A stretch of DNA of 64,000 bases from an uncultured Eubacteriales bacterium (GTDB lineage: Bacteria; Bacillota; Clostridia; Oscillospirales; CAG-272): positions 3,533-67,532 of the forward strand of contig URHI01000001.1 in the NCBI GenBank assembly GCA_900547565.1, read 5' to 3'. This document shows, piece by piece, positions 3,633 to 30,065 of this stretch; position 1 is the first letter of the stretch, and every line of letters begins with the position of its first letter. The position numbers and the translations under genes were made by a program. Under the pieces are notes generated by a model. It saw only the letters and a list, made by a program, of their open reading frames with translations. It made no database searches and was not told the origin of the DNA.

Positions 3633-3646
3633 AGCTGATTTCTCCT

Positions 3647-4477: not shown

Positions 4478-4482
4478 GATGT

Positions 4483-5799
4483 TTATTTTCTCCTTTTGAA
4501 TAATTCGATAAGCAATGAAAGATTTTGTTTAATAAGCAGACTGTCCGAATCGTCTGTAAGTCCGAAGGCCTTGCCAAAGCGGAAGGTGCCTATCTCATAT
4601 CCGCCGCGGCATATTTCTTCCTTATTGGGCAGATAGACGTTGGAGCCGTTTGTATTGCAAATGCACAGCGTATCGTCAAAGGGGCTGTAATGGCGAAGCC
4701 GCATGGCAATGACCGAAAACAGCTCAAACGGGAACGGCACTATGGCGATACCTCCAACTGCGACTATTACCTGCTCGTAGCTATACTCAGTTTCAGGCTT
4801 TTTGCCTTGCTTGTATATATCCAGCATATCCAGCACGTGACGGTATTCAAGATATTTGAGATTTGTCAGCTTGGACGGGTCGGGATACCGTGCGAGGATA
4901 TCGGACAGCTCATTCTCGAGATACTCACGTGAGGGAAGCGGGCAATATGGCAGCGTTACGGTACCGGTAATGACATCTATCACGGCATCGTCACGATAAT
5001 CGGATATTCCCTGCCGGGCCCGCAGTGCATCGGCCGCGGCAACAGCTCCCACCTCGGCGACATATGTGATATCGGCCGTGGTTTTTCCGTTGCTCAGGCG
5101 CGGCCCGACATCACCCGACGCGGCGTTAAAAAACATAGCAAGCCCGCCGTATTCGCGCTCCAGTGCATCAGTCATAGGACCGGGCCAGTCGCGCGTGACC
5201 TCGTGGTTACAGCCGGCACAGGTTCCGTGGCAACCGTAATGAACTATATTGACCAGCTGTGATCCGTCATCGCGTACCAACGACAGCACCGTCAGCCTCG
5301 GGTCAAAAGGTCCCCATGGGTTTTGTCCCAGGTGAACGTTGGACTCGGGATCTATCTCACGGCGGTTGATACCCAGGCGGCTCTCGGTCTGTCCGACACC
5401 AAGCCTTACCCTGCAGAGTGAGCCTGCAGCTGCGGCAACCGCTTTGAGAGTTTGAGGCATAAGTATTTCGTCGACAAACTTGTAGTCAATACCGCCCCAG
5501 CCCTCCATATCGGAAGCATTGGGTGCCGAGTGCGTGTGCGTGGCAGACGCCACAATGCGCGATTTTGACAGTCCGGTCAATGCGGCTGCTTCGCTTCTCA
5601 TACGGTCGGCAACCTCGTTGGCCAAAAGCCCCATATCGCAGTCTATGAACACAACGCTCTCATGACTGTCCGTCAGATAGAGCACATTCACGTTTATATC
5701 ATCGTTGACAGAAGTTGCCTCGACGCCCGGCTTATAGCCGAACAGGCATGTGCCCAGCGGCGGGGTTATTTTTTCTCTTGCCACACCGGCAAATAACAT
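4483..5799 (-). CDS. Neutral/alkaline ceramidase N-terminal-domain-like hydrolase, no signal peptide
   Basis: The N-terminus AGVAREKITPPLGTCLFGY...SATHTHSAPN...HYGCHGT resembles the neutral ceramidase fold. RBS aaagga precedes the ATG. Confidence 0.6.
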   Translation of the reverse strand: MLFAGVAREKITPPLGTCLFGYKPGVEATSVNDDINVNVLYLTDSHESVVFIDCDMGLLANEVADRMRSEAAALTGLSKSRIVASATHTHSAPNASDMEGWGGIDYKFVDEILMPQTLKAVAAAAGSLCRVRLGVGQTESRLGINRREIDPESNVHLGQNPWGPFDPRLTVLSLVRDDGSQLVNIVHYGCHGTCAGCNHEVTRDWPGPMTDALEREYGGLAMFFNAASGDVGPRLSNGKTTADITYVAEVGAVAAADALRARQGISDYRDDAVIDVITGTVTLPYCPLPSREYLENELSDILARYPDPSKLTNLKYLEYRHVLDMLDIYKQGKKPETEYSYEQVIVAVGGIAIVPFPFELFSVIAMRLRHYSPFDDTLCICNTNGSNVYLPNKEEICRGGYEIGTFRFGKAFGLTDDSDSLLIKQNLSLLIELFKRRK

Positions 5800-5826
5800 A
5801 TGATCAGATCCTTTCCGGACAAGCCG

Positions 5827-7629
5827 TCAGTTATATATTTCGTTGCCCCGGTTTGGGGTATACGGCAGCGACAACGTGACGTTTCTGCCGTCGGCATAGA
5901 ATATCTCAAGCACGTTCAGCTTGTTTACAAGATAATAATTCTGATAGTATTCAGACAGCGTACTGCTTGCCGAGGCCAGCTGTACGGCTTTTTCCTCGCT
6001 GTTCGGCCACAGTATTACCGAAGGATCGACATGCTTATAAAACTCCACCGATGCCGCAACATATCCGTGATGCGCCACCTGCATGATATCGCTCTTGAGA
6101 TAGTCTCCGAAGCGATCGATCATGATCTTGCAGCCTTCCTTGAGTATATCGCCGAGTATCATAACTGTCTGACCGCCGGCTTTGATGCGCGTCACCATAC
6201 TGGTGTTATTGAACTTGGCAATAGGGTCGGGATACATATCCTCCTGCGTATACAGCACCTCAAGTTCAAGTCCCTTGAGCCTGACCGGTTCTCCGGTGTG
6301 CAGCTTGACCAGCTTAAAGCCGCCAACCGCCTGACTTGCGGCCTGGTATTTTTCCGCCATAAAATAATGCGGTTCGTCCGAATTCATAACGGAGGTATAC
6401 GACGGAGTATTGCACAGGAAATATTTGACTTCAACCTTTGAACCGTATTTGCAGCAGAAGTCATACAAATTGGCATAATGGTCCCAGTGCTCGTGTGTCA
6501 ACAGCCACGCCGAGATGACTATTTTGCCGTCAGGACGCTCGTTAAGTGTGTTCAGCAGGTTGTACAGACGGTCAAAATCACCGTTTACGTTGCCGCCGCT
6601 GTCGTAGATCAGAAATGAACCGTCCTCCAGCGTGACAATATAGCACATTCCTATGTTTTTTCCGCCTGTGTAGTCCAATATCATCTGCGTGACCTTGATA
6701 TTGGTAATTGGCGTATATTCCTCGTCCTCAACAAAATTGGTTTCGGACAGCGGCGCCGATACCAACCGCGTCACACCGTTACACGGCGAGAACGACACGT
6801 AAATCACGGTGTCCTTTGCCGCGCTTTTGTAGCATATGAAGCGGTTATCGGTTATACTGTTTTCATACACCCGCTCGTACCCGGACGCGGCGAGCGTGCT
6901 CTCGTACGCCTCAAAGTCGGACAGCGAGGTATCAGTGTAGTACCATAACAGATTGTTATCGTTGCAGTCAGTGGTGCCTGTCAGCCGACCGGCTGTGAAG
7001 GCGGGAATATCAACTCTCCAGGTATACTCTTTTTTCAGCTGGACAAGGTCGCCTGCAAGCTCGAGAGCCTGCGATTTGGTTGAATAGTTAAGTTTGAAAT
7101 ATGTAGTAAAGCTGTCAATAGCCGACGACAGTGAGGTAAGGTTCCAGCCGAATATGACCAGCTTGTTCCCCCTGACACCGAAGCCGTACTGATTGATTGC
7201 CATATCCGCCATAAATTCGGCAGACTCGGCGCGGTTGGTTTCGCCGATCAGTATTTCGTGCTCGGAGGAGTGATCTTCCGATGCGCCCACAGCATCACTT
7301 TTGAGCTTGATCGACACATTTGAATAGTTCAGAAAGGTGTTGGCCATTTGCTGTGCCATAGTGCGGACGGTATCGTCACCTGAGCGGTATACTATGACAA
7401 AATCGGTCTTGCCGTCCTTGACAAAGGATAGCGGCTCGGCCGCCGGCACCGTGGTATCATCCGTCGGTGCGGTGGTGTTCTCAACGGACGCCGTTGTGCT
7501 GCCCGACACTTCCGGAGTTGTATCTCCGGACGTTGTGTCGGCAGGGACATTATTGTTATTGCACCCAGCAGCCAGCATTGACAGTGTAAGCAGCGCTGCT
7601 ATCAGGGTGGAAAATCTGATTTTTTTCAT
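5827..7629 (-). CDS. Surface lipoprotein: Thr-rich linker, shared N-module and MBL-fold metallo-hydrolase domain
   Basis: Signal peptide plus Cys (LSMLAAGC). The HxHxDH motif LLTHEHWDHYANL is present. The N-module is FVIVYRSGDD...EILIGETNRAES. Confidence 0.7.
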   Translation of the reverse strand: MKKIRFSTLIAALLTLSMLAAGCNNNNVPADTTSGDTTPEVSGSTTASVENTTAPTDDTTVPAAEPLSFVKDGKTDFVIVYRSGDDTVRTMAQQMANTFLNYSNVSIKLKSDAVGASEDHSSEHEILIGETNRAESAEFMADMAINQYGFGVRGNKLVIFGWNLTSLSSAIDSFTTYFKLNYSTKSQALELAGDLVQLKKEYTWRVDIPAFTAGRLTGTTDCNDNNLLWYYTDTSLSDFEAYESTLAASGYERVYENSITDNRFICYKSAAKDTVIYVSFSPCNGVTRLVSAPLSETNFVEDEEYTPITNIKVTQMILDYTGGKNIGMCYIVTLEDGSFLIYDSGGNVNGDFDRLYNLLNTLNERPDGKIVISAWLLTHEHWDHYANLYDFCCKYGSKVEVKYFLCNTPSYTSVMNSDEPHYFMAEKYQAASQAVGGFKLVKLHTGEPVRLKGLELEVLYTQEDMYPDPIAKFNNTSMVTRIKAGGQTVMILGDILKEGCKIMIDRFGDYLKSDIMQVAHHGYVAASVEFYKHVDPSVILWPNSEEKAVQLASASSTLSEYYQNYYLVNKLNVLEIFYADGRNVTLSLPYTPNRGNEIYN

Positions 7630-7637
7630 TTAATACC

Positions 7638-9143
7638 TTAGCTTATTTTTTTGAATGCTTCTACAAACTGGTCGAGCTTGTTGCTCCACAGCTTGCTTGA
7701 GGTTTTATAATATGATGCAAAGTTTGACGACTGCTGGGTAGCGCAAAGCTCGGTCAGACGCGGCCCACAGTTATATATCAACCCGAAATCATATCTGATG
7801 CCTGCACGTATGATCTCCAGCATCTCGGCCTGCTCGGCATCCTCGGCATATTTGTACTTGAGCGCCTTGTCGAAGGTTTCGGGTGTCACATATCGCCAGC
7901 TTTCGGCACACAGCGCCTCGGCTATCATGCCCGACATAGCAGGGTCGCGCGCGGTCTTCATGACCTCGACTGCCGATGCGGCATTGTCGCTGAGCGTGTA
8001 ATAATCCGGCTGAGCCTCGTTATACTTGGGCAGAGGAATTATGCCGTAGGTATCGTCCATATCGGTGAACACGCCCATAAGCGCTGTAACAAGCTGACCT
8101 GGCATCATGAGCGCCTGTCCGTTCTTGAACATGGTGTAGTAGCCCTGCTTCCAGTCAAAGAATGAATAACAGCCGGGGGTATTGTACATGAGGTCGTATA
8201 TCTTGGCGCTTATGTCTATCCACTTTTCCTGATCAGGATCAAGTATAGGCATACCGTCAGCATTGTGCTTGACTGAAATGGCATCAAACGACGCCTGGAA
8301 TGCCATGGGATAACCGGTACACTGAAGCGCACAGCCATATGTATCGCTCTCGTCACGGATACCGTTTCCGTCGTCAATGTAGACGTTGCTGAGCACCGTC
8401 AGAAACTTTTCATAAGTCCACTCACCACGGGACACTGTGGCATAAATGCCGTCAAGCCCATACTCCTTAGCCATGGCACGGTTGAAATAAATGCCGTACA
8501 TGGACTCAATATATGACTGTACGATATCTCCGACAATGAAATACGTCTCTCCGCCTATGCTGAGCTCATCATAAGCAACATTATTCCACCATTCGCGTGA
8601 AATATCAATGTTATCCACCTGGGAGAAGGGCAAAAAGCAGTCCTGTGTGATGAGCAGTGCCGACCATGAAGCACGCTGCGCAATAAGGTCAAAGCTGTCC
8701 TCTGTAGCTCCGGACGTCACTATGTTTTTGATCTTGTTATTGAGATCCTGATTGGTGTCGGTGGAAAAGTCAAATCGCACACCGAAGCGGTCCTCAACTG
8801 CAAGTTGTGCGGCGTGAATGGCACTTTGAATAGCGTCACCGCCGTGTGATTCCACAATAAAGTCGTCTACCGCAGGGCTGTAATTCTGAATCAGAATACG
8901 GTAGATTGCATTGTTGTAATTGGCTTCGGGGAGGTTATCCTGAACATCGGCGCGGTTGGTAACGGCAGTGGTTGTATCGGCCGGCGTGGTTGTATCGTTC
9001 TGAGTTTCCGACGAATCCGGCGAGACGCTCTGGCTGTCACCCGGAGTGGTGGTATCGTCGTTGGGATTAACCGTGGGCTTTGTACATGCTGCAAAGCAAA
9101 TCAGCATACAGCACATGATCAGTAGAGTAATAGTGCGTTTCAT
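7638..9143 (-). CDS. Orphan extracellular solute-binding-protein-like lipoprotein (paralog of 20189..21667)
   Basis: The start is chosen at MKRTITLLIMCCMLICFAAC (RBS ggagag). A Thr-rich linker follows. Family-1 SBP-like. There is no adjacent permease or ATPase. Confidence 0.65.
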   Translation of the reverse strand: MKRTITLLIMCCMLICFAACTKPTVNPNDDTTTPGDSQSVSPDSSETQNDTTTPADTTTAVTNRADVQDNLPEANYNNAIYRILIQNYSPAVDDFIVESHGGDAIQSAIHAAQLAVEDRFGVRFDFSTDTNQDLNNKIKNIVTSGATEDSFDLIAQRASWSALLITQDCFLPFSQVDNIDISREWWNNVAYDELSIGGETYFIVGDIVQSYIESMYGIYFNRAMAKEYGLDGIYATVSRGEWTYEKFLTVLSNVYIDDGNGIRDESDTYGCALQCTGYPMAFQASFDAISVKHNADGMPILDPDQEKWIDISAKIYDLMYNTPGCYSFFDWKQGYYTMFKNGQALMMPGQLVTALMGVFTDMDDTYGIIPLPKYNEAQPDYYTLSDNAASAVEVMKTARDPAMSGMIAEALCAESWRYVTPETFDKALKYKYAEDAEQAEMLEIIRAGIRYDFGLIYNCGPRLTELCATQQSSNFASYYKTSSKLWSNKLDQFVEAFKKIS

Positions 9144-9289
9144 AAAATCCTCTCCTAAAAATAATTTGAACGGATTTGACAGCGTCTTTTCGGACGACAC
9201 CGTGCCGCTCTGACATCCGGAGCTTAAGACGCCGGCGCTCCTGACGTATTGGCGGCCGCCGCAAGCGGCACGGTATGGCCCTATTACAG

Positions 9290-10138
9290 TTATGCTTCTC
9301 GACCGTATTGTCTTGACTCGCTTCGATATTCTGACGGCGTCATGCCGCAGTATTGCTTGAATATCCTGCTGAATTTCTTGCCTTGACTCATACCGCAGGC
9401 ATCACCCACTTCGCGTATGGTCAGCGGTGAGCCTTCAAGCAGATATTTTGCCTCATCAATACGGCAATTATTGAGATACTGAAGAAATGTAAGTCCGGTC
9501 GATGCCTTGAACACACGGCAGAAGCTGGTGCGTTCATAGCCTGCGACCGAGGCTACCGAGGAAATGGAAATGTCCTCGGCAAAATGCTGATCGATGTAGT
9601 TAAGCGCCACCTGCACGTTCTGCAGATACTGCAGGTGACCCTTGCGCTTGCGCGTTACCGTGCCTATTGTAGGCAGGCTGCGGCACAGAAGTGATGCCAT
9701 AAGCATGACATAACCCTGGAGCGCCCAGCTGGTATCCGGCGACTGTTGTTCCTTGAGTTTTTCCTCAAGTATGAGTCCAAGCAAGCGGGCAAGCTCGGCC
9801 GTCCAGCGTTGGCCGTCGTTAAGACGTATTACATGCTCAGGGCAGCAATGCGTCAGAAACCAGCTGAATTCCTCGCCGAGCATATGCTCTCCGACGATTA
9901 TCAGCATTTTTTCGGCATCTGCATGCGGCTGCTCCAGCCGATGCTCTTCCGCGCTGTTGACAAATATGACCTCTCCGGGGTTGGCAGTTACCTTTTCACC
10001 TTCCACTTCCATGTGTACCCGTCCGCTTATGCACCAATTCAGCTCGATCTCCTTGTGCCAGTGGTACGGAAATGACGGACCGGCGGCAATGGATACCTGA
10101 TACTTTTTTTCTTTTCTGAGTGGTGGCTGATACATCAT
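9290..10138 (-). CDS. AraC family transcriptional regulator (cupin plus HTH)
   Basis: The C-terminal AraC HTH reads ISISSVASVAGYERTSFCRVFKASTGLTFLQYLNNCRIDEAKYLL. The N-terminal part is cupin-like. Confidence 0.9.
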   Translation of the reverse strand: MMYQPPLRKEKKYQVSIAAGPSFPYHWHKEIELNWCISGRVHMEVEGEKVTANPGEVIFVNSAEEHRLEQPHADAEKMLIIVGEHMLGEEFSWFLTHCCPEHVIRLNDGQRWTAELARLLGLILEEKLKEQQSPDTSWALQGYVMLMASLLCRSLPTIGTVTRKRKGHLQYLQNVQVALNYIDQHFAEDISISSVASVAGYERTSFCRVFKASTGLTFLQYLNNCRIDEAKYLLEGSPLTIREVGDACGMSQGKKFSRIFKQYCGMTPSEYRSESRQYGREA

Positions 10139-10161
10139 AGCGTGTTTACCTCCGTTGCGGT

Positions 10162-11190
10162 TTACAGTGAAATTTTACCGACTCGGATCTCGGGCTGCGA
10201 CCATGCGGCCGCCTGCTTTTCCATTTCGGCAATTTCACTGATGCCGTCCGATGCTCCCGCAGTGAGCAGTGAGCAATTCGCGGCCAGCGTTCCCAGCTTC
10301 ATTGCCGCGTCGAGCGTGTATCCGCGGAACGCGCCCAAAAGGACTCCGGAACAGAAGGCGTCACCTGCACCGGTGGTGGAGGCAATTGCCTCGCGCGGCA
10401 CGCCGTAGACCGTTGCTTTGACGTAATTGCCCTGCGCGTCCACGCCGTAGCTTGCCAACTTGGAGTGAATTACCACCCACTCGCTGACTCCACACTCACG
10501 CAGAGCGCGGAAAACTGACGGCAGATTATCTTCGATTATACCACTGTCCCCCGACAGCTGTATACCCGTCGTACGTTCAGCTTCAAGCTCATTGATAATG
10601 CAGTAATCCGTGTATTTGAGTGCCGGCATGACTATGCCGCGAAAGCGCGTGCTGTTCTCACTGACGATATCAACCGAGGTTTTGAGTCCGCGCTCCTTTG
10701 CGCCTGCCAGCAGGCGGGCCAGTTTTGTTCCGTATTCGGCATCCGGGGCATCCAGCGCCTTAAGCAGAAGTATGTAGCCTATGTGAAGCAGTCCTTCATA
10801 GTCGTCAAGCTCAAGACAGCTCTCGTCAAAGTTTTCGTTTGCCCCCGCAAACTGGAAGAACGTGCGTGTATTGTTCTGCTTTTCGTACATAACGTCGGTA
10901 AATGACGTCTGACCGCTGATCTTTATTCCGCTGACATCGATGTTTTCATACGCGCTCAACACGTCCAATATAAAGCGTCCCTGCTGATCGTCGCCTACAA
11001 GCCCCGCGGCGTATAACGGAAGCTCGGGATCCATTCTGGCAAGATCCTGTATGCAGTTGCAGACAAGTCCGCCAGGAGCCAAAGACAGCTCGCTGATGTT
11101 GGCCAGTGTAGAAGGTGCGGGGTATGCGTCCAGCCGTTTGAGCTGATCTGCTATAATGCTTCCTGCACAGATTATCCCTCTTTTTTTCAT
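10162..11190 (-). CDS. PfkB family carbohydrate kinase
   Basis: C-terminal TTGAGDAFCSGVLLG and N-terminal GGLVCN motifs. The ATG at 11190 lies 1 nt after the upstream stop. Confidence 0.85.
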   Translation of the reverse strand: MKKRGIICAGSIIADQLKRLDAYPAPSTLANISELSLAPGGLVCNCIQDLARMDPELPLYAAGLVGDDQQGRFILDVLSAYENIDVSGIKISGQTSFTDVMYEKQNNTRTFFQFAGANENFDESCLELDDYEGLLHIGYILLLKALDAPDAEYGTKLARLLAGAKERGLKTSVDIVSENSTRFRGIVMPALKYTDYCIINELEAERTTGIQLSGDSGIIEDNLPSVFRALRECGVSEWVVIHSKLASYGVDAQGNYVKATVYGVPREAIASTTGAGDAFCSGVLLGAFRGYTLDAAMKLGTLAANCSLLTAGASDGISEIAEMEKQAAAWSQPEIRVGKISL

Positions 11191-11191
11191 T

Positions 11192-12226
11192 TTATCTCTC
11201 ACCCATAAGATGTGCCAGAACGTATGCTTCCAGCTTTTCGTAGTTACGCTCCGCTATGCACTTATTTTTATAATCGTTGTCAAAGGTTTCAACCTTTTTC
11301 TCCAGCATTTTGACCATTTCCATGCTGTTGATGATGTGGCGGTAACAGTCATCGGCCTTTTGCGTACGCATAACCTTTACATCAAGCCCGACATACTCGC
11401 CGCCGGCACCGTAGTTATTGTCACACAGCACCTTGATCTGGTTGAAGGCCGAACGGATATTCTCGGAGCCAAAAGATTTATCCTGATCGTATCTCATTCC
11501 GTTCTGGTCGTTGAGATGCACGCTTCCCAGCTTGCCGAAGGACAGCGCAAACGCCATTTCAATAGCGGGATCAAGTCCTGCAAGTATGGCATGTGCGCTC
11601 TCAAGCACGGCGCCTACACGGGCGGGATCAACCGTTGAGGCAGACACAGCCATAACATGACCGACCGTCGGACAAAAGCTGCGGTCAATAGGCTCATTGG
11701 GCTTAGGCTCGATAAGCACACGGATATTATCGTCATATTTCAGCATTTTGTTTATGCTTTCGATAAGCTTATGCGTCTTCTCGACCGGATCTTTTGTCTC
11801 GGCGCAAAGTGTACCCTCGCGGGCAAGCCACAGTACTATGTTGCGTGCTCCCAGCTCGCGGGCAATGTCAATGGAGCGGAAGGCTCTCCACATTGCGAAT
11901 TCATAGTCCTCGTCCGAGTTGGAAGTAAAGCCGCCGTCGGTCGTGTGGGGATCCATCCAAAGACGGGGCGCTACAAATTCGGCGGCCAATCCGTATTTAT
12001 CCAGCTTTTTCTTTACCTCGCGGGCGGCCGCCTTGATTTCGGCCTCGTTGAGATTGTTCATATCCGGGACAGCATCATCGTCGTGGAATTGCACGGCGGA
12101 CAGGCCTATCTCGGCAAATTTCCTGAATTTTTCTTCGATATCAATAGTCGGACGCACCTCGGGACCGAACGCATCCGCGCCCTCGTGAACATTCCAGGGA
12201 CCTGCTGTAAACTTGAATCTTGACAT
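11192..12226 (-). CDS. Class-I xylose-isomerase-like sugar isomerase (short, 344 aa)
   Basis: Motifs align by eye to actinobacterial XylA: FHDDD, LAREG, EPKPNEP, ESAHAILAGL, HLNDQNG, YDQD. Confidence 0.75.
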   Translation of the reverse strand: MSRFKFTAGPWNVHEGADAFGPEVRPTIDIEEKFRKFAEIGLSAVQFHDDDAVPDMNNLNEAEIKAAAREVKKKLDKYGLAAEFVAPRLWMDPHTTDGGFTSNSDEDYEFAMWRAFRSIDIARELGARNIVLWLAREGTLCAETKDPVEKTHKLIESINKMLKYDDNIRVLIEPKPNEPIDRSFCPTVGHVMAVSASTVDPARVGAVLESAHAILAGLDPAIEMAFALSFGKLGSVHLNDQNGMRYDQDKSFGSENIRSAFNQIKVLCDNNYGAGGEYVGLDVKVMRTQKADDCYRHIINSMEMVKMLEKKVETFDNDYKNKCIAERNYEKLEAYVLAHLMGER

Positions 12227-12256
12227 GACTTTCTCCTTTTTATGTATATTATTAAT

Positions 12257-13405
12257 TTACTGTTCAATGCTTATCCATCTGCGCTCCCGGCTGCTATGCA
12301 CAATGGCCTCTGTCAAGCGGACTATGTATGCAGCATCTTCAAAGGTGGCAAAATCGGGCTTATCGGTGCGGTCGGAGGCGAGATAGCGGTAAAACGCCCG
12401 GATATTTCCGCAAAAGGCGTCGTTCCAGCCCTCGGGATGACCCATAGCCAGCGAGGTATACTGTCTGACCTCGGGCGCCATAGTGTTGGGATTGCGGATT
12501 ATGTAGTGGTTGTCACCATCGCGGTGCCCTTCCCACAGACGGTCATTCTCCTCCTGATTCCAGCGCAATGATGCTTTGCTGCCATTGACCTCAATACCAA
12601 AGCAACAACCGTGTCCGGCGCTTATTTCCGAAACGTGAAACGAACCGTGCGCACCGTTGTCCATGCGGAACAGCACTGCGGCGTATTCTTCATTTTCAAT
12701 TTTGCGGAGCTCGTATTCAAAATCTTTGCGGCTGGTAAACGTTTCGGTCGCTTTGACCGGCTTTTTACGGTATGGAATGAATGTGTTGAGATCGCCCATC
12801 ACCTCGGTTATACGGGCGCCGGTTATGTGCTGTACGGCATCCATCCAGTGCGAGCCGATATCGGCCACACAACATGAAATACCGCAGATGTCGGGCTCAA
12901 GCCGCCACGAATAATCAGTATCGTACAGCAGCCAGTCCTGCTGGTACGCTCCCGACAGCACTCTTACCTCGCCTATGCTGCCGTTTGCAATGCGGTATCG
13001 CATTTCCTGAACCATGGGATTCATGCGGTAATTAAAGTTTACTGCCGCAACGACCTCAGGGTGGCGCGCCTTTATCTCAAGCAATTCACACGCCTCGGAA
13101 TAATTGCGCGCCAGAGGCTTTTCACTGAGCAGATGCTTACCCGACTCGATTATTTTTTTGTTGATCTCCAGATGAAGATGATTAGGCGTACAGTTGTGTA
13201 TTACGTCTATGTCCGGGTCAGCCAACAGCTGCTCCACCGAGGCATAGCATTTGGGAATACCGTACACCCCGGCCTTTTTGGCGGCCAGCTCGGCATTTGT
13301 GTCGGCAACCGCCTCAAGTCGGCAACCGGCAACGCGTCGCACGGCATCGATGTGGCTTTCACCTATGTAACCCATCCCTATGATACCCACTCTGAATTGT
13401 TTCAT
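12257..13405 (-). CDS. Gfo/Idh/MocA family oxidoreductase
   Basis: Rossmann-type N-terminus MKQFRVGIIGMGYIGESHIDA. RBS aggaga precedes the ATG at 13405. Confidence 0.85.
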   Translation of the reverse strand: MKQFRVGIIGMGYIGESHIDAVRRVAGCRLEAVADTNAELAAKKAGVYGIPKCYASVEQLLADPDIDVIHNCTPNHLHLEINKKIIESGKHLLSEKPLARNYSEACELLEIKARHPEVVAAVNFNYRMNPMVQEMRYRIANGSIGEVRVLSGAYQQDWLLYDTDYSWRLEPDICGISCCVADIGSHWMDAVQHITGARITEVMGDLNTFIPYRKKPVKATETFTSRKDFEYELRKIENEEYAAVLFRMDNGAHGSFHVSEISAGHGCCFGIEVNGSKASLRWNQEENDRLWEGHRDGDNHYIIRNPNTMAPEVRQYTSLAMGHPEGWNDAFCGNIRAFYRYLASDRTDKPDFATFEDAAYIVRLTEAIVHSSRERRWISIEQ

Positions 13406-13440
13406 TGGTTCTCTCCTGTTATGATATTTTGACTGTCGTA

Positions 13441-14382
13441 TCAGTCTTCGAACAGACCGTACTGCTCCAGGGCATATTTTCCTATACTGTAAAGCAGACT
13501 CTCGGCCTGAATACAAATCTCACGTGACGCATTGAAAAGCCGCGGTGCCTCACCTCCGGGACCGACAAACTCATTGCGCTTGTGCGGCCATGCTCCGGCA
13601 GGCATTATCATATTGCTCGCCTCAAAAGTAAACGGTCCCCCGAAGCCTACGGCAATCAGCCCCTGAATCACGGCATCAAGATTGAGTGTACCCATAAACG
13701 GTGCTATATGCTCGTCATACTTGCCGTAGTTGTCCTGAATGTGCACCGCCCGTAGCAGGTCGCCCAGCGCGACTATGTCGTCGTACTGGTTCACCCCGCG
13801 CATGTTGGCGTGTCCGGTATCCCAACAGGCGAAAAGTCTGTCAAAGTCGGTGTATTCTATAAATTCACGTATGTCTGCCCCGGTAAAAAAGAAGTATTTA
13901 CTTCCCATATTGCCCTCAGCGCTGTTTTCGGTCAGCACATTGACGCCGTAGTGCTCGGCGTCGTCCATCAGGCGGGCATAAAACTCACGGTTTTCGGCAT
14001 AATAGCGCTCACGTCCGCCGTCCGCAGGAATATCGCGGCTAAAACCCGCGTGCGTTACCAAATTTGGTATACCGAGAATGCCGCATGCTTCTATAGTTCG
14101 GCGCATGGCAAGCATACCTGTCTCGTGGTCGGCGGCGGGATCAAACGGATTGTAGCCCGGCGCATGCGCCTGCACATATGTAACTCCGTATTTTGCCGCA
14201 GCACCGGCATATTCGTCTATATAACGCTGGTAGTCATCTCCGACCAGCCGTGATCCCGGGCGATGATCGGTGTAAAAGCTTACGTCAAGATATTTAAACC
14301 CGGTTGTCCGGAAATTTCCTATTATACGGTCGGGTGTGTCTCCGCTCCAGAACAGGTCCCCTGTTGTTGTTGCAAGCTTCAT
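13441..14382 (-). CDS. Sugar phosphate isomerase/epimerase (xylose-isomerase-like TIM barrel)
   Basis: MKLATTTGDLF...; HAP, TEN, WDTGHAN and HIQDN motifs. RBS aaaggag precedes the ATG at 14382. Confidence 0.8.
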   Translation of the reverse strand: MKLATTTGDLFWSGDTPDRIIGNFRTTGFKYLDVSFYTDHRPGSRLVGDDYQRYIDEYAGAAAKYGVTYVQAHAPGYNPFDPAADHETGMLAMRRTIEACGILGIPNLVTHAGFSRDIPADGGRERYYAENREFYARLMDDAEHYGVNVLTENSAEGNMGSKYFFFTGADIREFIEYTDFDRLFACWDTGHANMRGVNQYDDIVALGDLLRAVHIQDNYGKYDEHIAPFMGTLNLDAVIQGLIAVGFGGPFTFEASNMIMPAGAWPHKRNEFVGPGGEAPRLFNASREICIQAESLLYSIGKYALEQYGLFED

Positions 14383-14419
14383 TGGCACATACTCCTTTCG
14401 CGCATTATCTGACAAATTC

Positions 14420-14448
14420 ATTATAACACAAAGAAGTGCTTATTTCAA
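14420..14448 (-). promoter_or_regulatory. Sigma-A type promoter of the 14382->2481 operon
   Basis: On the minus strand: TTGAAA (14448-14443), 17-nt spacer, TATAAT (14425-14420) with an upstream TGt extended -10. Confidence 0.55.
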
Positions 14449-17392: not shown

Positions 17393-18097
17393 TTATTTCC
17401 CGGACTGACGCAGACACACGGGGTTGATAGCCGCAATCGGTGCATTGCCCTCTCCGATGACAATGCATTTCCACTGCGACTCGTTCCCCTCAAACATTAT
17501 TTTGCCCAAAGATCCGCAGCCCTCGCTGGCACGCGGCGCTATTTTGCGCAGTTGTAGCGTAACATTAAGCGTCGTCATACTGCTTCCTGCCGGAATACAA
17601 ATGAGCTGCGTGTGATCGGCCGTGTAAAGCACGCCTCCCATTTCGCAATATGCAGTATTTTCTGCGTCAACGGATATGTATGCCAGCGCTGGGCAGGCGG
17701 CAAATGCACCGTCACCTATCTCGGTCACGCTGTCAGGTATCTGGACCGCACTTACGGTGGTGTTTCCCGCAAATGCACCTGACGAGATGGCTGTTACCGT
17801 CTCGCCCGATTCATTCACATCGGGAATAATAAGACAGCTGTCGCGGCAGTCACCTATTCCGGTCAGTGTACAGCTGCCGTCTCCGTTTGACTTGTAGCTC
17901 AGCCCGTGTGAATAAACGTCACCAACTGCAACCGGAACCGATTCTGTTGTTGTCTCGGGCGTGGTTTCGGGCGATGCCGTTGTTGTTTCGACGGTTGTGG
18001 TGTCATCAGCACCGCGACGCGACATGCCGCAGGCGGCGCACCCCAATGCGCACAAAAGCATAAGCGTCACCGCAAGAATTACTTTGAAATCCTTCAT
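17393..18097 (-). CDS. Lipoprotein with BspA-type leucine-rich repeats
   Basis: MKDFKVILAVTLMLLCALGCAAC signal, then a Thr-rich linker. The repeats contain IPDSVTEIGDGAFAACPAL and similar. Confidence 0.7.
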   Translation of the reverse strand: MKDFKVILAVTLMLLCALGCAACGMSRRGADDTTTVETTTASPETTPETTTESVPVAVGDVYSHGLSYKSNGDGSCTLTGIGDCRDSCLIIPDVNESGETVTAISSGAFAGNTTVSAVQIPDSVTEIGDGAFAACPALAYISVDAENTAYCEMGGVLYTADHTQLICIPAGSSMTTLNVTLQLRKIAPRASEGCGSLGKIMFEGNESQWKCIVIGEGNAPIAAINPVCLRQSGK

Positions 18098-18324
18098 TTT
18101 TTGTCCTTTCCCGGTGGGCTGTGATTTTGCCGTTACCCGGCACAGCCGCACCGTCACTCCGCTGTCCGCAGAGCTTGTCCACATTTTACCATTTGTTCGT
18201 TTGGTAGTCAATAAAAAAACATCGACCTCATTCCTCACATACTGTCCGGAAACGACAAAGCTCCCTGCCGACAACCGCGCGGATTGCCGACAGGGAGCCT
18301 GTTTTATGAAATTATGTCGTAATT

Positions 18325-20169
18325 TTATTCACCAAACGTCTGTGCACCGTATATTTTTGCGATGAACTTGGAGATATCGGTGTTATCTACCGTTGTATTG
18401 TTGAAACATTCTGTTCCGTAACCAAGTGCATAAACAGGAACATCAGCGTTGGTGTGTGTGGTGACTGTGTACTTATACTCACCGTTGTCGTTTTTGGTGA
18501 TACCGCCTGTCTCATGGTCGGCGGTTATGATAAGCACACTGCTGGGGTGACACAGCGTAAACTCTATGCAGTAGGCAATGATCGAGTTATACCTCACCAC
18601 ACGATTAGTCGTTCCGTTCAGGTCATTCTGATGTGAACGCTTATCATTGTCTGCCTCCTCTATCATGGAGAAGTAGCCCTTATCCCCCTGCGCAATTCCC
18701 CACAGTGCCTCGGGAATGTCGTTGATAATGTCATCGCTGTCTTTGTTGCTTATAGCATAATCGACCTGCTTGTTGGCAATCAGTGCGTCAATCTGTGACT
18801 GGATGACACTGGTGGAATTACGGTCGTTTACATGGGCCAGAAATGCGGCGGGAGTAGCGCCCGTAATGTAGTCGGTGGTAAGTATCGCAGTGCGTGCTCC
18901 GACCGAATGAGCCAGTTCACGGACATTGAGTATGGACTTACCCCTGTAGTTAAGCCCGAGATAGCTGTTGAATGTTTTGCACCCGGTTGCAAGTGCCGTG
19001 CCGGCTGCGGCACTGTCGGTATAACCGGCCTTGCCTATCTTGACTGAATACGAAAACGTCTTGGCGCTTCCCTTGTTCGGCAGCAGCCGGGCTACAAATT
19101 CCTGCAGCTTGCCCGATGCCAGCGTTGCCTCCACGTGATTGTAACCCATACCGTCACCTATAAGCAGAATGGCGCTATCCGGAGTTTCAAACTTGAAGGT
19201 CTTGGCAGTATACGCGGTTGGAAGGGCGGTCACGTCAATTGCCTGATTCGCTGTATGAGGCTTTGCGTAATTGTTAATAAAGTCACTGACAGCTCCGCCG
19301 ACCATATATGACTTACCGTACATAACTATTTTGCTTGCCGTCTGCGCCAGCACGTACTGGTCATCGGCCAGTTTTACGCCGGCAGCCTGTACCGACTCGG
19401 GACGGTTTGTTGCACCGACGAGTATTTCGCAGTCGGTCCGCTCGGCGGTGTCGGCAGCTGTATCCAGCCGCACGCCTGCGTAATAATACAGATAATCGGA
19501 CAGATTCTGCGCGGCGGCAGCTGCAAGTATGTCGCCGTCGGGAATGATGATTTTATAATCCATTATGCTGACGCCGCTCACCGACAGACTTCCCAGCGGA
19601 TAGCTGTAGCTCTGAAGGTAATTCAGGTCGTCCATAATGGCAACGCGCTTGTTGGAGGGATCCACATAATGGCTGACAAAATAATCCACTCCCCACCCGG
19701 TGGCCTCGTCATCACCGCCGATTATGTAAATACGCTCGTTGGCGTATACAATGGCGAAATCCTTTTCGCGCAGCCGTGATCTTATACTCTGCGCCTCGGG
19801 ACGGTCACACACGCCGACTACGATTTCCTTGGCCTTTTGCGGGACAGGTTCGGTTCTTTTATGCCAGTCGGTATCGATCTTGACATTGATCCCAGTTGCA
19901 TCTGCCAGCGTGGTGCGCAGACCTGATGCAATATTTGTCAGTCCCTTGCTGCAGGTTTCGGGACGTATGACCTTGTACTGCATTTCACCGTTCTCGGCAA
20001 CGATCACCGGCTGAGCGGGTGCTTGGGTCGTATTAGCCGGCATTGTGGTCGTTATCTCAGCCGGTGTGGTATCCGGAGTGATCTGTCCGGGATCCCGGGT
20101 GTCGGCACAGGCAGCCAGCGTCGCACATGTAAGCAATACCAGTATAAGCGCGGTAATTTTTTTCAGCAT
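18325..20169 (-). CDS. Surface lipoprotein: 2 copies of the shared N-module plus an alkaline phosphatase domain
   Basis: Lipobox TLAAC. Alkaline phosphatase motifs are LIGDGMGYNH, TDSAAAGTALATG and ITADHETGG. N-modules are YKVIRPE...EIVVGVCDRPEA and YKIIIPD...EILVGATNRPES. Confidence 0.8.
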   Translation of the reverse strand: MLKKITALILVLLTCATLAACADTRDPGQITPDTTPAEITTTMPANTTQAPAQPVIVAENGEMQYKVIRPETCSKGLTNIASGLRTTLADATGINVKIDTDWHKRTEPVPQKAKEIVVGVCDRPEAQSIRSRLREKDFAIVYANERIYIIGGDDEATGWGVDYFVSHYVDPSNKRVAIMDDLNYLQSYSYPLGSLSVSGVSIMDYKIIIPDGDILAAAAAQNLSDYLYYYAGVRLDTAADTAERTDCEILVGATNRPESVQAAGVKLADDQYVLAQTASKIVMYGKSYMVGGAVSDFINNYAKPHTANQAIDVTALPTAYTAKTFKFETPDSAILLIGDGMGYNHVEATLASGKLQEFVARLLPNKGSAKTFSYSVKIGKAGYTDSAAAGTALATGCKTFNSYLGLNYRGKSILNVRELAHSVGARTAILTTDYITGATPAAFLAHVNDRNSTSVIQSQIDALIANKQVDYAISNKDSDDIINDIPEALWGIAQGDKGYFSMIEEADNDKRSHQNDLNGTTNRVVRYNSIIAYCIEFTLCHPSSVLIITADHETGGITKNDNGEYKYTVTTHTNADVPVYALGYGTECFNNTTVDNTDISKFIAKIYGAQTFGE

Positions 20170-20188: not shown

Positions 20189-21667
20189 TCAGTGTTCCAG
20201 GCCGTTTATCTGTTCAAGCGTTTTTGAAAGCAGCTTGCGCTGATTGGTCTCCTGCCCCTTGAGCAGTGAGTTGATGTCCATTTTGCCTGCGGCAAAGAAG
20301 GAGTATATCTGACTGCTGAAGGTTGTGCCTACAATTTTGTTGACATAGGAAATGTTGTCGTGAATAATGGTCAGCATTTCGGCAGACTCAACGTCGGTTG
20401 AGGACTTGTATTTGAGCGCCGTCTCATAATATGCGGGAATCAGCGCCGAGTCGGAATAATATGCGCTGGAATAATAGGACAGTGCCTCAAGCAAAACACC
20501 TGTGCGCTCAACGTTTTGGGTAGGGCTGGGTATCATGATCGAGTGTGGGTTGGGGCTGACCTGTATGTAGTTTTCCTGTGCCTCGTCCCACTTGGCCACG
20601 GGCAAAATGCCGAAGTTGACATCGGAAGCACGTGATTTTGAAGCCATGTACAGCGTATCGATAGTAAACAAGGTATTGTTGTTTATGAACATGCTGCGCC
20701 CGTCATCGGTATTGGTGATAAGGTAAAAATCTCCCTCAGAGAATGTGCTCAGCAGTTTTTGGTATACATTAACGAAAAATTCCTTCTCGTCAAAGCAACA
20801 GAAATACGGAATACCGTCACTTCCCTGCTTGATTATCTCGGCGTTGCAACCGGTGAGCATTGCCTCGTAGAAGGTAGTGGCGTTATTAGCAATACCGACA
20901 CGGTCGCTGATGTTATATATGCTATTGCCGTCGCGGTCGTTAAGCGCCGTTTTTGCCATAGTCTGCATCTTTTCTATAGTCCACTTATTTTGATTGACAA
21001 GAGTATACGGATCCTCAAGGTTCAGGTCGCGAATAAGATCCTTGTTGAAATAGGTTGCCCGGGCATTGTCGAGTGCCGTGATAAGAAAGTCGCTGAAGGT
21101 ATAGTACAGTTTACCGTTGATTGACAGCTTCTGCTGAGCATTCTGATCCCACCATGGCATGGACAGATCAATAGTCTCAATGTTTCTCATATCAAGCGAA
21201 TAACCTGCATTAACCATGCTCATTATGTTGGAAAGGTCAATGGTTGCGATTGCATAAAGGTCATCACCCGACTGAATGGCGGTCTTGATAGGGCCGATAT
21301 CGACATCCGCATCTACAATTTCCACGCCGAACATGCTCTCGATAAGCACAGTGCGGTCGTACAGTGCATCATTGATGGACTCCCCCTGCTGTATGTCGGA
21401 GCGAATAGCGTTGGTGGTATACTTGGTGGAGTCGGCAAAATCGTTAGCAACGACAAAAGAATATCCCTGGTACTTGACATCAGGCAAATCGGGGGTCAGC
21501 TTTTCCAATGTAGTATCGGTGGTGTTAGTATCTTCGGCGACATTGGTGGCAGATGTACTTTGTTGTTCCGGGGTAGTATCCTCACCGTCGCCGGTCTGAT
21601 TGGCACAGGCGGCCACCATAGGTAACAACATAAGCAAAACCAGTATCATAAGTAAACTTTTTTTCAT
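20189..21667 (-). CDS. Orphan SBP-like lipoprotein (paralog of 7638..9143)
   Basis: Lipobox MVAAC followed by a Thr-rich linker. It shares the motifs INGKLYY, FGILPVAKW and SAEMLTII with its paralogs. Its stop lies 19 nt before the alkaline phosphatase lipoprotein start. Confidence 0.65.
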   Translation of the reverse strand: MKKSLLMILVLLMLLPMVAACANQTGDGEDTTPEQQSTSATNVAEDTNTTDTTLEKLTPDLPDVKYQGYSFVVANDFADSTKYTTNAIRSDIQQGESINDALYDRTVLIESMFGVEIVDADVDIGPIKTAIQSGDDLYAIATIDLSNIMSMVNAGYSLDMRNIETIDLSMPWWDQNAQQKLSINGKLYYTFSDFLITALDNARATYFNKDLIRDLNLEDPYTLVNQNKWTIEKMQTMAKTALNDRDGNSIYNISDRVGIANNATTFYEAMLTGCNAEIIKQGSDGIPYFCCFDEKEFFVNVYQKLLSTFSEGDFYLITNTDDGRSMFINNNTLFTIDTLYMASKSRASDVNFGILPVAKWDEAQENYIQVSPNPHSIMIPSPTQNVERTGVLLEALSYYSSAYYSDSALIPAYYETALKYKSSTDVESAEMLTIIHDNISYVNKIVGTTFSSQIYSFFAAGKMDINSLLKGQETNQRKLLSKTLEQINGLEH

Positions 21668-27153: not shown

Positions 27154-28086
27154 ATGAAAATCAAGTCTTTAATTGCACTGGCGCTGATATTTGTAATGAT
27201 GTTTGTAATGGTCGCCTGCAATAACGGTGACCAAAATCCTGCAGACACAACAACAGCTCCCAAGGCTGACACAACTCCGACACCGGTCACAACATCTGCA
27301 AAGCCCGCTGACACCACCACCCCCGCAGATTCCACAACAGCCGCACCTTCCGACACCACAACAGCCACACCTTCCGACACCACAACAGCTTCGTCCGGCG
27401 AATTAACGCCTGTCGATTTTTCCGAGTTGTCCGACGCTGAGAAGGCCGCGCTCAAATCAGTCATGCCCGCCACTCTGCCTAACGACGAGAAATATGACAT
27501 TGCTTGCCGTACCTTCTGCATGGACAGAGCAGATGAGGACTATCTCATAGAAGGCAACTCCAAAGGCAGCGCTTCATTCGTAGGAACTGATGACGGCGCT
27601 ATATACGGTAAAGCAGTAAAGTTTGCAGGAAAATCCGACTCCAAGGACAGCCGCGGTGAAATTCAGCTTACCTGCTACGGAGACGCTCCCATTGCGGGCT
27701 GCAAGGGCATACTGTTCTATGTCGACTTCTCCAACGTCGAAATAAACCCAGAAAAAACCAACGCAATGTGTGGTTCGGTAACTATCAACACCAATGATGT
27801 CCGCTCGCAAGGACCTGAAAACGCAGTCGGCTCAGCAGTCGCCTACTACTATGAAAACAACACTTGGGTTAAAACGACCAATATAACGACCTGCCGCATA
27901 TCCATTCCCGATAACTTCGCAGGCTGGATCTACGTTCCCGCATCTTCATACTATGATAAGAACGCAGGTGCGATCGGCGATACCTTCCCTGATATCTTTA
28001 TCATCAATATGCGTTGCTATACCGACGGCTACACCTACTCGGCCGATTCTTACATTATTTTTGACGAAATAACCTTCGTAAAATAA
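27154..28086 (+). CDS. Lipoprotein with a long Thr/Pro-rich linker and an uncharacterised ~200-aa C-terminal domain
   Basis: The signal peptide ends in MVAC. A ~70-aa TTTAP/ADTTTP linker follows. RBS aggagg. I recognise no family for the globular part. Confidence 0.6.
   Translation: MKIKSLIALALIFVMMFVMVACNNGDQNPADTTTAPKADTTPTPVTTSAKPADTTTPADSTTAAPSDTTTATPSDTTTASSGELTPVDFSELSDAEKAALKSVMPATLPNDEKYDIACRTFCMDRADEDYLIEGNSKGSASFVGTDDGAIYGKAVKFAGKSDSKDSRGEIQLTCYGDAPIAGCKGILFYVDFSNVEINPEKTNAMCGSVTINTNDVRSQGPENAVGSAVAYYYENNTWVKTTNITTCRISIPDNFAGWIYVPASSYYDKNAGAIGDTFPDIFIINMRCYTDGYTYSADSYIIFDEITFVK
27343..27390 (+). repeat. 24-bp tandem repeat (2 copies) inside the Thr-rich linker
   Basis: gcaccttccgacaccacaacagcc / acaccttccgacaccacaacagct, 22 of 24 identical. 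It encodes APSDTTTA and TPSDTTTA. Confidence 0.85.
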
Positions 28087-28151: not shown

Positions 28152-30065
28152 ATGAAAAAAATACTGCTTATATTCGCCGCGGCTCTTGCTGTACTGCTCT
28201 GCTTCACTGCCTGTGACAGAGAAAATCCGCAGGATCTTCCCGACTGCAGCAGTGTGTCTGACAGCACGTCAGACACTACCGGCTCTTTGCCTGAAGCGCT
28301 GAATATTGTCACCGGCGGTGCGACAAAATATAAGGTCATACGCCCGGAAAACTGCTCAAAGCAGGTGACAGATGCCGCAGTTGCACTGCGCCTCGGCATA
28401 ATGAAAAAATATGACCTGTCCGAAATGACAATAACCACCGACTTTGAATCGCGTGATGCCGACCCGGCTGACCGGTATGAGTATGAGATCCTGGTAGGCA
28501 GCACCAACCGTGAACAGAGCATACTTGCACTCGGTTCGATAAAATACAATGATTTCGTAATATGCGTAGACGGTACACGTGTGGTCATCGCCGGCAACAA
28601 CGATGAAAAAACCGCCGAAGCGGTTGATTATTTCCTATCCAATTATTTGGGCGACAATACGCTTTCACTGCCGGCTGACCTGTCATATGTCAGCACTGCC
28701 GAATACCCCGCCGCCGGAGTTACTCTGCTCGGGCAGCCTGTTTCCGCTTATCGCGTAGTCTACAAAAGCTCATATAAATCCATGGCGGAAACGGTCGTGA
28801 GTACACTGGGAGCTTCATGCGGTGACGTCATGTCCATGAACAGCGACGCAGCAAACTCCACCTCCAATGAAATTGTCATCGGTACGACCCGCCGCGGCTC
28901 ATCTGGCAAGACCTTTGGTGCGGATGACTTTGCACTTACGGTAAAGGATGGCAGTATATTCATTGAAGGCGGCTCGGATTACGCCGTCGGCTCCGGCTGC
29001 CGCTACCTTTTGAATTTGGTCTCGTCTTCCTCAGGGGACCTGAGCCAGTCCGCTCTGAGCTACAGCTATACCCTGCCCGACCGTCAGGTATACATTGACG
29101 ACATATCCAAGCTGGCCATGCACTGGGACATTGAATTCGATACCCCCGACTGGATGACCGACTTTGAGGAAAAAGTCGCCTCAATGAACGATCCCGATGG
29201 CCGGCTTATGTCCTGCCTGCACCGCGGAGACATGCTGTACTACCCCGAAAACTCTATCGAAGGCATCATAAGCGCCATTCGCATGGGTGCCGATATGGTG
29301 GAGATCGACGTACGGGCAACCAAAGACGGCATACTGGTCCTCATGCACGACGACTCGCTGTCCCGCATGACAAATGCCGAACAGTTCGCCGGCAAAAACG
29401 GATTTCCGTCATCGCTTCTTATCAGCAACTGGACGTACGATCAACTGTGTCAGCTGTCGCTTAAGGAACGCAACGGCGGCACGTCAGCCGCGCTTACAAG
29501 CTATAAGATCCCGACACTTGATGAGGCAATGAAGGTGTGCGCCGAGCGCGTTTTCGTCCGTCTTGACAAGCTGGATCAGTGGAATTACGCGCAGGATATC
29601 TGGCCGCTGATACAAAAGTATAAGGCATATACCACCGTTATTTTCACTTGGCACAGCGCCTTCACCTCGTCAAATTACGCACTGGTCAAAAACTACAAAA
29701 AGAAAATGGAGACCGCCGCAGGGCGCTCATCGTTCTGCTTTGTGGGTATTAATTCAAGCGGCTCGGCGGCAGCCGCGCTGAACACTATAAATACCAACGA
29801 TCTGGACAGGTGCGTACGTTTGACCGACTGCGATTTTTCCAAATTCACGCTTGACGAATATCTCAGTAAGGTCAGCACGATTTTATCTGGCCTGAGTGGC
29901 CGTGCGAGATGCTACATAGACGCGCACGGCAATAACTCGCGTTACGAAACACCCGAGTGCTATGCTAAACTGTACGACGCAGGCATCAATATACTGCTGG
30001 TCAACAAAGGGCTTTCACTCTGCCAGTACATCGAACAAAATTACTCGGCAGGTACGACTGACTGA
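28152..30065 (+). CDS. Surface lipoprotein: 2 copies of the shared N-module plus a glycerophosphodiester phosphodiesterase (GDPD) domain
   Basis: GDPD signature HRGDMLYYPENSIEGIISAIRMGADMVEIDVRATKDGILVLMHDDSLSRMTN. N-modules are YKVIRPEN...EILVGSTNREQS and YRVVYKSS...EIVIGTTRRGSS. Confidence 0.8.
   Translation: MKKILLIFAAALAVLLCFTACDRENPQDLPDCSSVSDSTSDTTGSLPEALNIVTGGATKYKVIRPENCSKQVTDAAVALRLGIMKKYDLSEMTITTDFESRDADPADRYEYEILVGSTNREQSILALGSIKYNDFVICVDGTRVVIAGNNDEKTAEAVDYFLSNYLGDNTLSLPADLSYVSTAEYPAAGVTLLGQPVSAYRVVYKSSYKSMAETVVSTLGASCGDVMSMNSDAANSTSNEIVIGTTRRGSSGKTFGADDFALTVKDGSIFIEGGSDYAVGSGCRYLLNLVSSSSGDLSQSALSYSYTLPDRQVYIDDISKLAMHWDIEFDTPDWMTDFEEKVASMNDPDGRLMSCLHRGDMLYYPENSIEGIISAIRMGADMVEIDVRATKDGILVLMHDDSLSRMTNAEQFAGKNGFPSSLLISNWTYDQLCQLSLKERNGGTSAALTSYKIPTLDEAMKVCAERVFVRLDKLDQWNYAQDIWPLIQKYKAYTTVIFTWHSAFTSSNYALVKNYKKKMETAAGRSSFCFVGINSSGSAAAALNTINTNDLDRCVRLTDCDFSKFTLDEYLSKVSTILSGLSGRARCYIDAHGNNSRYETPECYAKLYDAGINILLVNKGLSLCQYIEQNYSAGTTD

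Follow-up and report, generated by a model that had tools for sequence, protein, structure and literature searches.

The accessory domains described by the Pfam models Glyco_hydro_20b, Glyco_hydro_67N and NAGLU_N belong to one superfamily, share an alpha/beta fold of about 100-130 residues and normally occur once per protein, directly N-terminal to the catalytic barrel of glycoside hydrolases (GH) of families GH20, GH67, GH84, GH89 and GH115 and of the DUF4838 glycosidases (GH163/GH185). Until now the GH20b/GH67N-type domain has been regarded as inseparable from certain glycosidase barrels and as doing no more than stabilizing them. GH20b itself is non-catalytic, always lies N-terminal to the barrel, forms a conserved interface with it, and is reported as a requirement for the GH20 catalytic domain to be expressed and stable (PMC4449183), while DUF4838 is the catalytic domain of GH163/GH185 and a distant relative of GH20 (PMC10570127). 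Here we describe a module that appears to belong to this superfamily in a very different setting, the N-terminal regions of three lipoproteins encoded in a 64,000-nucleotide stretch of DNA (hereafter the window) from an uncultured Eubacteriales bacterium (assembly GCA_900547565.1, contig URHI01000001.1, positions 3,533 to 67,532 of the forward strand).

Five module copies in three lipoproteins

The module is about 120 residues long and occurs twice in an alkaline phosphatase (AP) lipoprotein, twice in a glycerophosphodiester phosphodiesterase (GDPD) lipoprotein and once in a metallo-beta-lactamase (MBL) lipoprotein. The open reading frames (ORFs) and the copies were located by sequence, BLASTP and profile hidden Markov model (HMM), and lie where the initial annotation had put them:

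18325..20169, minus strand: AP lipoprotein gene, an ORF of 614 aa with lipobox signal peptide, Thr-rich stalk, two tandem modules and alkaline phosphatase domain
20107..20169, minus strand: AP signal peptide and lipobox (aa 1-21, ...TLAAC), read from the sequence
20014..20106, minus strand: AP Thr/Pro-rich stalk (aa 22-52), read from the sequence
19606..20013, minus strand: module copy AP1 (aa 53-188), a putative GH20b/GH67N-like alpha/beta domain; 171.8 bits with the five-copy HMM
19228..19593, minus strand: module copy AP2 (aa 193-314); 149.5 bits with the five-copy HMM
18328..19197, minus strand: alkaline phosphatase catalytic domain (aa 325-614), from Pfam and fold match
5827..7629, minus strand: MBL lipoprotein gene, an ORF of 600 aa with stalk, one module, a stretch of about 135 aa and a ComEC-like metallo-beta-lactamase domain
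7066..7437, minus strand: module copy MBL1 (aa 65-188); 165.8 bits with the five-copy HMM
28152..30065, plus strand: GDPD lipoprotein gene, an ORF of 637 aa with two tandem modules followed by a glycerophosphodiester phosphodiesterase domain
28293..28691, plus strand: module copy GD1 (aa 48-180); 75 bits in the leave-one-out test
28713..29057, plus strand: module copy GD2 (aa 188-302), the most divergent of the five; 34 bits in the leave-one-out test

Pairwise BLASTP joined all five copies into one connected set, with AP1-GD1 the strongest pair (71.6 bits, 33% identity), seven further pairs at 26-43 bits, and no significant direct match for AP1-MBL1 or AP2-GD2. In a leave-one-out test each copy was scored by an HMM built from the other four, with about 900 shuffles of the same sequence as the control. 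The real copies scored 34-75 bits and the best shuffle at most 8.9 bits, the individual values being 57 for AP1 (shuffles at most 5.2), 54 for AP2, 49 for MBL1, 75 for GD1 and 34 for GD2 (shuffles at most 7.4). The similarity among the copies is thus significant. When the five-copy profile was run against a six-frame translation of the window, no sixth copy was found.

Each of the three proteins begins with a signal peptide bearing a lipobox cysteine, followed by a Thr/Pro-rich stretch. The lipobox motifs LAAC, AAGC and FTAC (aa 18-23) were read by eye, and the cysteine is invariant in both homolog alignments. The placement of the module between stalk and catalytic domain, as first described, holds for the order of the parts in all three proteins, but module and catalytic domain are not contiguous in the MBL protein, where some 135 residues (aa 189-324; nt 6658-7065, minus strand) lie between them. 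This stretch matched neither the module HMM nor any Pfam family; the idea that it is a degenerate second copy was rejected, there being no HMM signal even with filters off, and it may be a further domain.

Judged by their sequences, the three catalytic domains (TAB5-type alkaline phosphatase, GlpQ-type GDPD and ComEC-type MBL) are typical of the families to which they belong and keep their active-site motifs intact. The AP protein matches Pfam Alk_phosphatase (PF00245) at 112.3 bits against a cut-off of 24.4 (aa 334-586). Across 42 homologs D339, D385-S386, E504, D509, H513 and D551-H552 are invariant and H572 nearly so (at least 90%), residues that we equate with the Ser nucleophile and the metal ligands known from the E. 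coli enzyme. The nearest solved fold to the AP model is TAB5 alkaline phosphatase (2iuc), and the E. coli enzyme was also matched, yet none of the solved alkaline phosphatases carries N-terminal domains of the kind seen here. The MBL protein matches Lactamase_B at 43.6 bits (aa 325-529) and ComEC-type NCBIfam models, with an HEHWDH motif (H379-x-H-x-D-H384) at aa 379-384, and the GDPD protein matches Pfam GDPD at 90.9 bits (aa 357-501) with its HRGD motif present. The public protein P0166, which shares 99% identity with the AP protein, has no other name than "alkaline phosphatase" and no domain annotation beyond PF00245/PF01676.

Family placement and catalytic partners of the module

While the initial annotation could not place the module in a named family, structure prediction followed by a Foldseek search, the course it had proposed, allowed it to be placed. 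An AlphaFold (AF2) model of AP1 built from a 19-sequence alignment (predicted local distance difference test, pLDDT, 84.7; predicted template modeling score, pTM, 0.82) has the element order beta-alpha-beta-beta-alpha-beta-beta-alpha, and the secondary-structure elements of AP2 in the full-length model follow the same order. Foldseek returned 45 matches to the AP1 model at E<=1e-3 (probability 1.00, TMq 0.42-0.69), nearly all of them N-terminal accessory domains of glycosidases from families GH20 (8pxt/8pxu, 4h04, 3gh4, 3rcn), GH67 (1k9d, 1mqp), GH84 (2cbj, 6pv4), GH115 (4c90, 4zmh, 7pxq) and GH138 (6hzg). One match was unrelated, the anchor/dimerization domain of a Methanococcus voltae S-layer protein (9fsa; PMC11410804).

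The window copies themselves fall under the Pfam cut-offs, the best being NAGLU_N at 22.4 against 28.3 bits, and GD1 has a weak match to that model (aa 133-167, E=1.1e-4). When 11 module sequences were compared with Pfam, NAGLU_N was hit weakly on 5, Glyco_hydro_67N at E-values down to 1.3e-5 and Glyco_hydro_20b at 0.058. The module regions of the 148 nearest homologs gave significant matches to Glyco_hydro_20b in 16 (best 5e-10), Glyco_hydro_67N in 10 (best 1.1e-11) and NAGLU_N in 4. In one homolog, P0046, the second module stands directly before a DUF4838 domain and scores 32 bits with Glyco_hydro_67N against a cut-off of 24.3, which by its sequence makes this protein a bridge to the canonical glycosidase architecture. 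Sequence and profile searches of the PDB gave marginal matches to GH84, GH67 and GH20 N-terminal domains at E 0.03-0.6 (the N-terminal domain of the GH84 enzyme NagJ at 0.3 in one profile search and at 0.03 in another), which are not significant alone and agree with the fold. A Sen1-type helicase and an Iojap-like protein, the top marginal PDB matches, were rejected as chance given that the fold search lends them no support. No carbohydrate-binding module (CBM) family appeared among the Pfam matches even at E<=10, nor among the Foldseek matches; NCBIfam offers no name for the module; and our literature search found no paper describing a GH20b-type domain on phosphoesterases.

Because the fold matches and the Pfam matches in close relatives point the same way, we place the module, on predicted structure and sequence, as a divergent subfamily of the GH20b / Glyco_hydro_67N / NAGLU_N superfamily. 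GH20b (PF02838), which is found in GH20 hexosaminidases and lacto-N-biosidase, shares with the module its alpha/beta fold, its non-catalytic nature and its position N-terminal to a catalytic domain. In contrast to GH20b, the window module is present in one or two copies (tandem in AP and GDPD, and up to eight in homologs), sits on non-glycosidase catalytic domains, scores below the Pfam cut-off, and has an E-I-L-x-G-x-T-N-R motif of its own. The best sequence links are to Glyco_hydro_67N (PF03648), NAGLU_N (PF12971) and the GH84/GH115/GH138 N-terminal domains, whose folds match through 1k9d, 2cbj, 4c90 and 6hzg. Yet domains of the Glyco_hydro_67N/NAGLU_N type are single and always precede a glycosidase barrel, whereas the partners in the window are Alk_phosphatase, GDPD and Lactamase_B domains, and two of the three proteins carry tandem copies rather than one copy per catalytic domain. 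As for the DUF4838 (PF16126) glycosidases, in 6 of the 148 nearest homologs a tandem module precedes DUF4838 with its last copy in the canonical position, and a DUF4838 glycosidase is likely to be the ancestral context of the module, although the window proteins have neither DUF4838 nor any other glycosidase domain. The module therefore does map to a known domain, but because the GH20b-type domain has no well-established autonomous role, this tells only in part against the common function that had been suggested for the copies.

An exhaustive HMMER search, again a step proposed at the outset, compared the five-copy profile with 1.84 billion cluster representatives (50% identity clusters) and found 5166 at E<=1e-3, 2437 at E<=1e-10 and 105 at E<=1e-30, so that the module is a real family; word-indexed homolog searches with module alignments had recovered only 7 and 13 short fragments without domain context. 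Copy number was counted in 149 new proteins among the best 150 of the 5166, and partners in 148 of them. All 149 have at least two tandem module copies, which start at median residue 47 and are separated by a short, constant spacer (median 12.5 aa, interquartile range 10-15), and 132 have a lipobox-like motif. Copy number per protein ranges from 1 to 8. The extreme case of this architecture is P0017 (3270 aa), in which eight copies are each followed by a region that resembles the EEP type, as judged by eye, and whose middle holds a GDS-containing segment suggestive of an SGNH hydrolase.

The most frequent partner among the 148 was Exo_endo_phos (EEP; 42), followed by Lactamase_B (MBL; 24), Alk_phosphatase (22), GDPD (12), DUF4838 (6), GH16 (6), Metallophos (4) and BNR_2 (3), with one case each of PI-PLC-X, GH43, GH5, WbsX and Beta_helix; a further group of 12 members has a C-terminal domain of about 280 aa without family assignment. 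Phosphoesterases account for about 70% of the partners and glycosidases for about 13%. The claim that a single accessory module was combined with several kinds of catalytic domain was made from three cases in the window, and it extends far more widely. When copies were compared between catalytic classes, copy 1 best matched copy 1 in 94 of 102 comparisons, and AP copy 2 and EEP copy 2 best matched each other, which suggests that the two domains were passed between AP, EEP and GDPD proteins mostly together, as one block. In the MBL lineage the duplication seems to have been a separate event; the nearest relative of MBL1 is copy 2 of a two-copy MBL protein (P0042).

With an alignment of AP-type tandem regions we recovered 40 related loci, all in metagenome-assembled genomes (MAGs) from human, ruminant and other animal guts (best 72% identity), of which all but one are labeled Eubacteriales, Clostridia, Oscillospiraceae, Lachnospiraceae, Ruminococcus or similar; L001 bears the label Bulleidia and L040 Planctomycetaceae. 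In the more distant AP-module loci L009-L030 (for example L013, 11949-13847 and 13947-14795) one or two more module genes follow about 3-5 kb downstream in a conserved arrangement, and module genes thus cluster in those genomes. In the history that we propose, a tandem duplication of the module would have arisen within one clade of uncultured Clostridia from the gut (Eubacteriales / Oscillospiraceae MAGs). The pair, mostly as an intact block, would afterwards have been joined to the extracytoplasmic catalytic domains of many membrane-anchored lipoproteins, domains unrelated to one another and for the most part phosphoesterases.

Pedestal, binding domain or docking surface

What the module does on these enzymes can be approached from its glycosidase relatives and from the AP protein, the sole catalytic class modeled. 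The model of the full mature AP protein (565 residues, three domains, 42 homologs) reached a pLDDT of 95.1 and a pTM of 0.91; compared with TAB5 it gave a TMq of about 0.45, the catalytic half alone matching. Given that flexibly linked domains could not reach a pTM of 0.91, the two modules and the phosphatase are predicted to form one rigid body. The short, constant spacer between modules was counted in favor of a rigid scaffold, and the stabilizing role reported for GH20b (PMC4449183) matches such a predicted unit. We therefore consider it reasonably probable that the module is a divergent GH20b-type domain, duplicated in tandem and recombined mostly with phosphoesterases, that serves as a structural pedestal stabilizing the catalytic domain. 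By model and by analogy the pedestal is its most likely role. The module would keep the role it has in glycosidases, that of a non-catalytic structural partner packing rigidly against the next domain and the catalytic domain, and would stabilize the latter while holding it out as part of one compact body, tethered flexibly to the lipid anchor by the Thr-rich stretch; the D...E-I-L-x-G-x-T-N-R-x-E-S motif would then be a fold-determining or interface element of the module subfamily.

Several observations weigh against a pedestal. Within the motif, E is conserved at 94%, G at 97% and R at 90% in 332 copies, and this polar motif is equally conserved whatever the copy position or the partner, phosphoesterase or glycosidase; a shared external ligand would account for this no less well than packing. 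The partner folds are unrelated (alkaline-phosphatase alpha/beta, MBL, EEP, GDPD barrel, beta-helix and beta-propeller), and a single stabilizing interface for all of them is hard to picture. Since one packing interface for so many folds is unlikely, the patch would be either intrinsic to the folding of the subfamily or a site for a common ligand. In the PDB profile matches the motif region was left unaligned to the GH84 domains, and the motif is thus not obviously a fold requirement of the whole superfamily. In addition, rigidity was judged by pTM, which is only a proxy for inter-domain contacts, and for the AP class alone.

On the other hand, the module might be an autonomous binding or targeting domain whose conserved D/E/T/N/R patch recognizes a common ligand. 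A common targeting or substrate-binding function, as the initial annotation suggested, may exist, and we give the autonomous domain a real but minor chance, perhaps a quarter of the weight that a certainty would carry. The ligand could be a cell-envelope polymer of the producer, so that the enzyme is retained or positioned within the wall, or else a phospho-glycan that the enzymes share as substrate, for example a teichoic-acid-like polymer; in both cases a whole set of phosphoesterases and glycosidases would converge on one target. That E-I-L-x-G-x-T-N-R is conserved above 90% across 332 copies, whichever copy is taken and whatever catalytic domain follows, speaks for such a ligand, as do the travel of the module without a tie to any one catalytic fold, a copy number that varies in the way typical of binding modules, the roughly 70% of partners that cleave phosphoesters, and the one Foldseek match to an archaeal S-layer anchor domain (9fsa; PMC11410804). 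Yet for GH20b-type domains only a stabilizing role has been reported and no binding activity (PMC4449183), neither Pfam nor the fold search revealed any CBM likeness, the pTM of 0.91 suggests a fixed body over an independently acting module, and the motif is as conserved with glycosidase partners, hence not specific to a phosphate substrate. For the latter reason we rejected the motif as a phosphate-binding site specific to phosphoesterase fusions. A narrower version, in which the tandem module is a recognition domain whose E/T/N/R patch binds a shared teichoic-acid-like/phospho-glycan polymer or the producer's own wall, is somewhat more doubtful again. If true, it would mean that the surface phosphoesterases and glycosidases of uncultured gut Clostridia are addressed to one substrate, and would give the long-unexplained GH20b-type domain its first autonomous function.

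A third proposal, also raised at the outset and based on gene adjacency, is that the module is a docking surface for an upstream solute-binding-protein-like (SBP-like) lipoprotein, enzyme and binding protein forming a complex on the membrane. The genes concerned are:

20189..21667, minus strand: SBP-like lipoprotein gene, an ORF 19 nt upstream of the AP gene on the same strand
7638..9200, minus strand: SBP-like lipoprotein gene, an ORF 8 nt upstream of the MBL gene on the same strand; Pfam SBP_bac_8, 28.1 bits
25657-26985, plus strand: sigma-SBP fusion ORF of 442 aa, with a complete extracytoplasmic-function (ECF)-type sigma factor (regions 2 and 4, aa 1-165) followed by the C-terminal two-thirds of an SBP-like protein

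The two lipoproteins are paralogs (26% identical), and NCBIfam has no name for such SBP-like proteins. The SBP part of the fusion is 22-25% identical to them and has no signal peptide; the fusion could be a sigma factor with a sensor-like extension or a deletion remnant. Two of the three SBP-like genes in the window thus directly precede a module gene, at distances of 8 and 19 nt, and the third is found 1.2 kb ahead of the GDPD gene. In the six closest loci (L001, L002, L004, L005, L006 and L024) the AP-module gene has an SBP ortholog as its immediate upstream neighbor, and there are a few independent SBP-module adjacencies (a second pair in L004, and L007 and L037). However, at about 25 AP-module loci of more distant kinship no SBP-like gene was found within 7 kb; the association is real in this lineage and not general. 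The module family, with its 5166 clusters, also spans far more architectures than the SBP pairing, and the adjacency is equally explained by product capture, the operon logic of an enzyme plus its binding protein, with no physical docking. We regard docking as improbable. Finally, that the five-copy resemblance is chance or composition with no real module behind it, as the missing direct BLASTP matches of AP1-MBL1 and AP2-GD2 might have hinted, is refuted and has practically nothing left in its favor in view of the leave-one-out scores (34-75 bits against at most 8.9 in shuffles), the thousands of homologs at E-values down to 1e-62 and the confident AF2 fold.

Gene neighborhood and significance for gut Clostridia

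Directly downstream of the AP gene on the same strand (17393-18274, minus) lies the gene of a BspA-type leucine-rich-repeat lipoprotein with a Thr-rich stalk, which may share its operon. The gene between the sigma-SBP fusion and the GDPD gene (27154-28086, plus) encodes a lipoprotein of 310 aa that has a long Thr-rich stalk and was matched by neither Pfam nor NCBIfam. The MBL and SBP-like pair lies inside a minus-strand cluster (2481-14421) that encodes an AraC regulator, a PfkB kinase, three xylose-isomerase-like TIM-barrel proteins, a GFO/IDH/MocA oxidoreductase and a DegT aminotransferase, together with a protein that weakly resembles neutral ceramidase (4483-5799); the cluster is reminiscent of inositol or sugar-alcohol catabolism and may hint at the substrate released by the surface enzyme. 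Elsewhere in the window, an Opp-type ATP-binding cassette (ABC) ATPase of 727 aa (35025-37208, minus) has its ABC_tran match split between aa 25-141 and about 514-594, which indicates an insertion of about 370 residues inside the nucleotide-binding domain, and the SBP_bac_5 protein beside it is unusually long (829 aa).

What we have described is a known accessory fold in a new use, in tandem and on phosphoesterases, in lipoproteins of uncultured gut Clostridia. That the module is duplicated on unrelated phosphoesterase folds in thousands of proteins implies a portable unit with a function independent of a glycosidase partner. Some 270 N-terminal residues that now stand without annotation in proteins called "alkaline phosphatase", GDPD or MBL gain one, and the result would justify a new Pfam family beside the Glyco_hydro_20b, Glyco_hydro_67N and NAGLU_N models. 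It also flags a large set of uncharacterized surface phosphoesterases in uncultured gut Clostridia, which may serve to scavenge phosphate or to turn over polymers with phosphodiester links.

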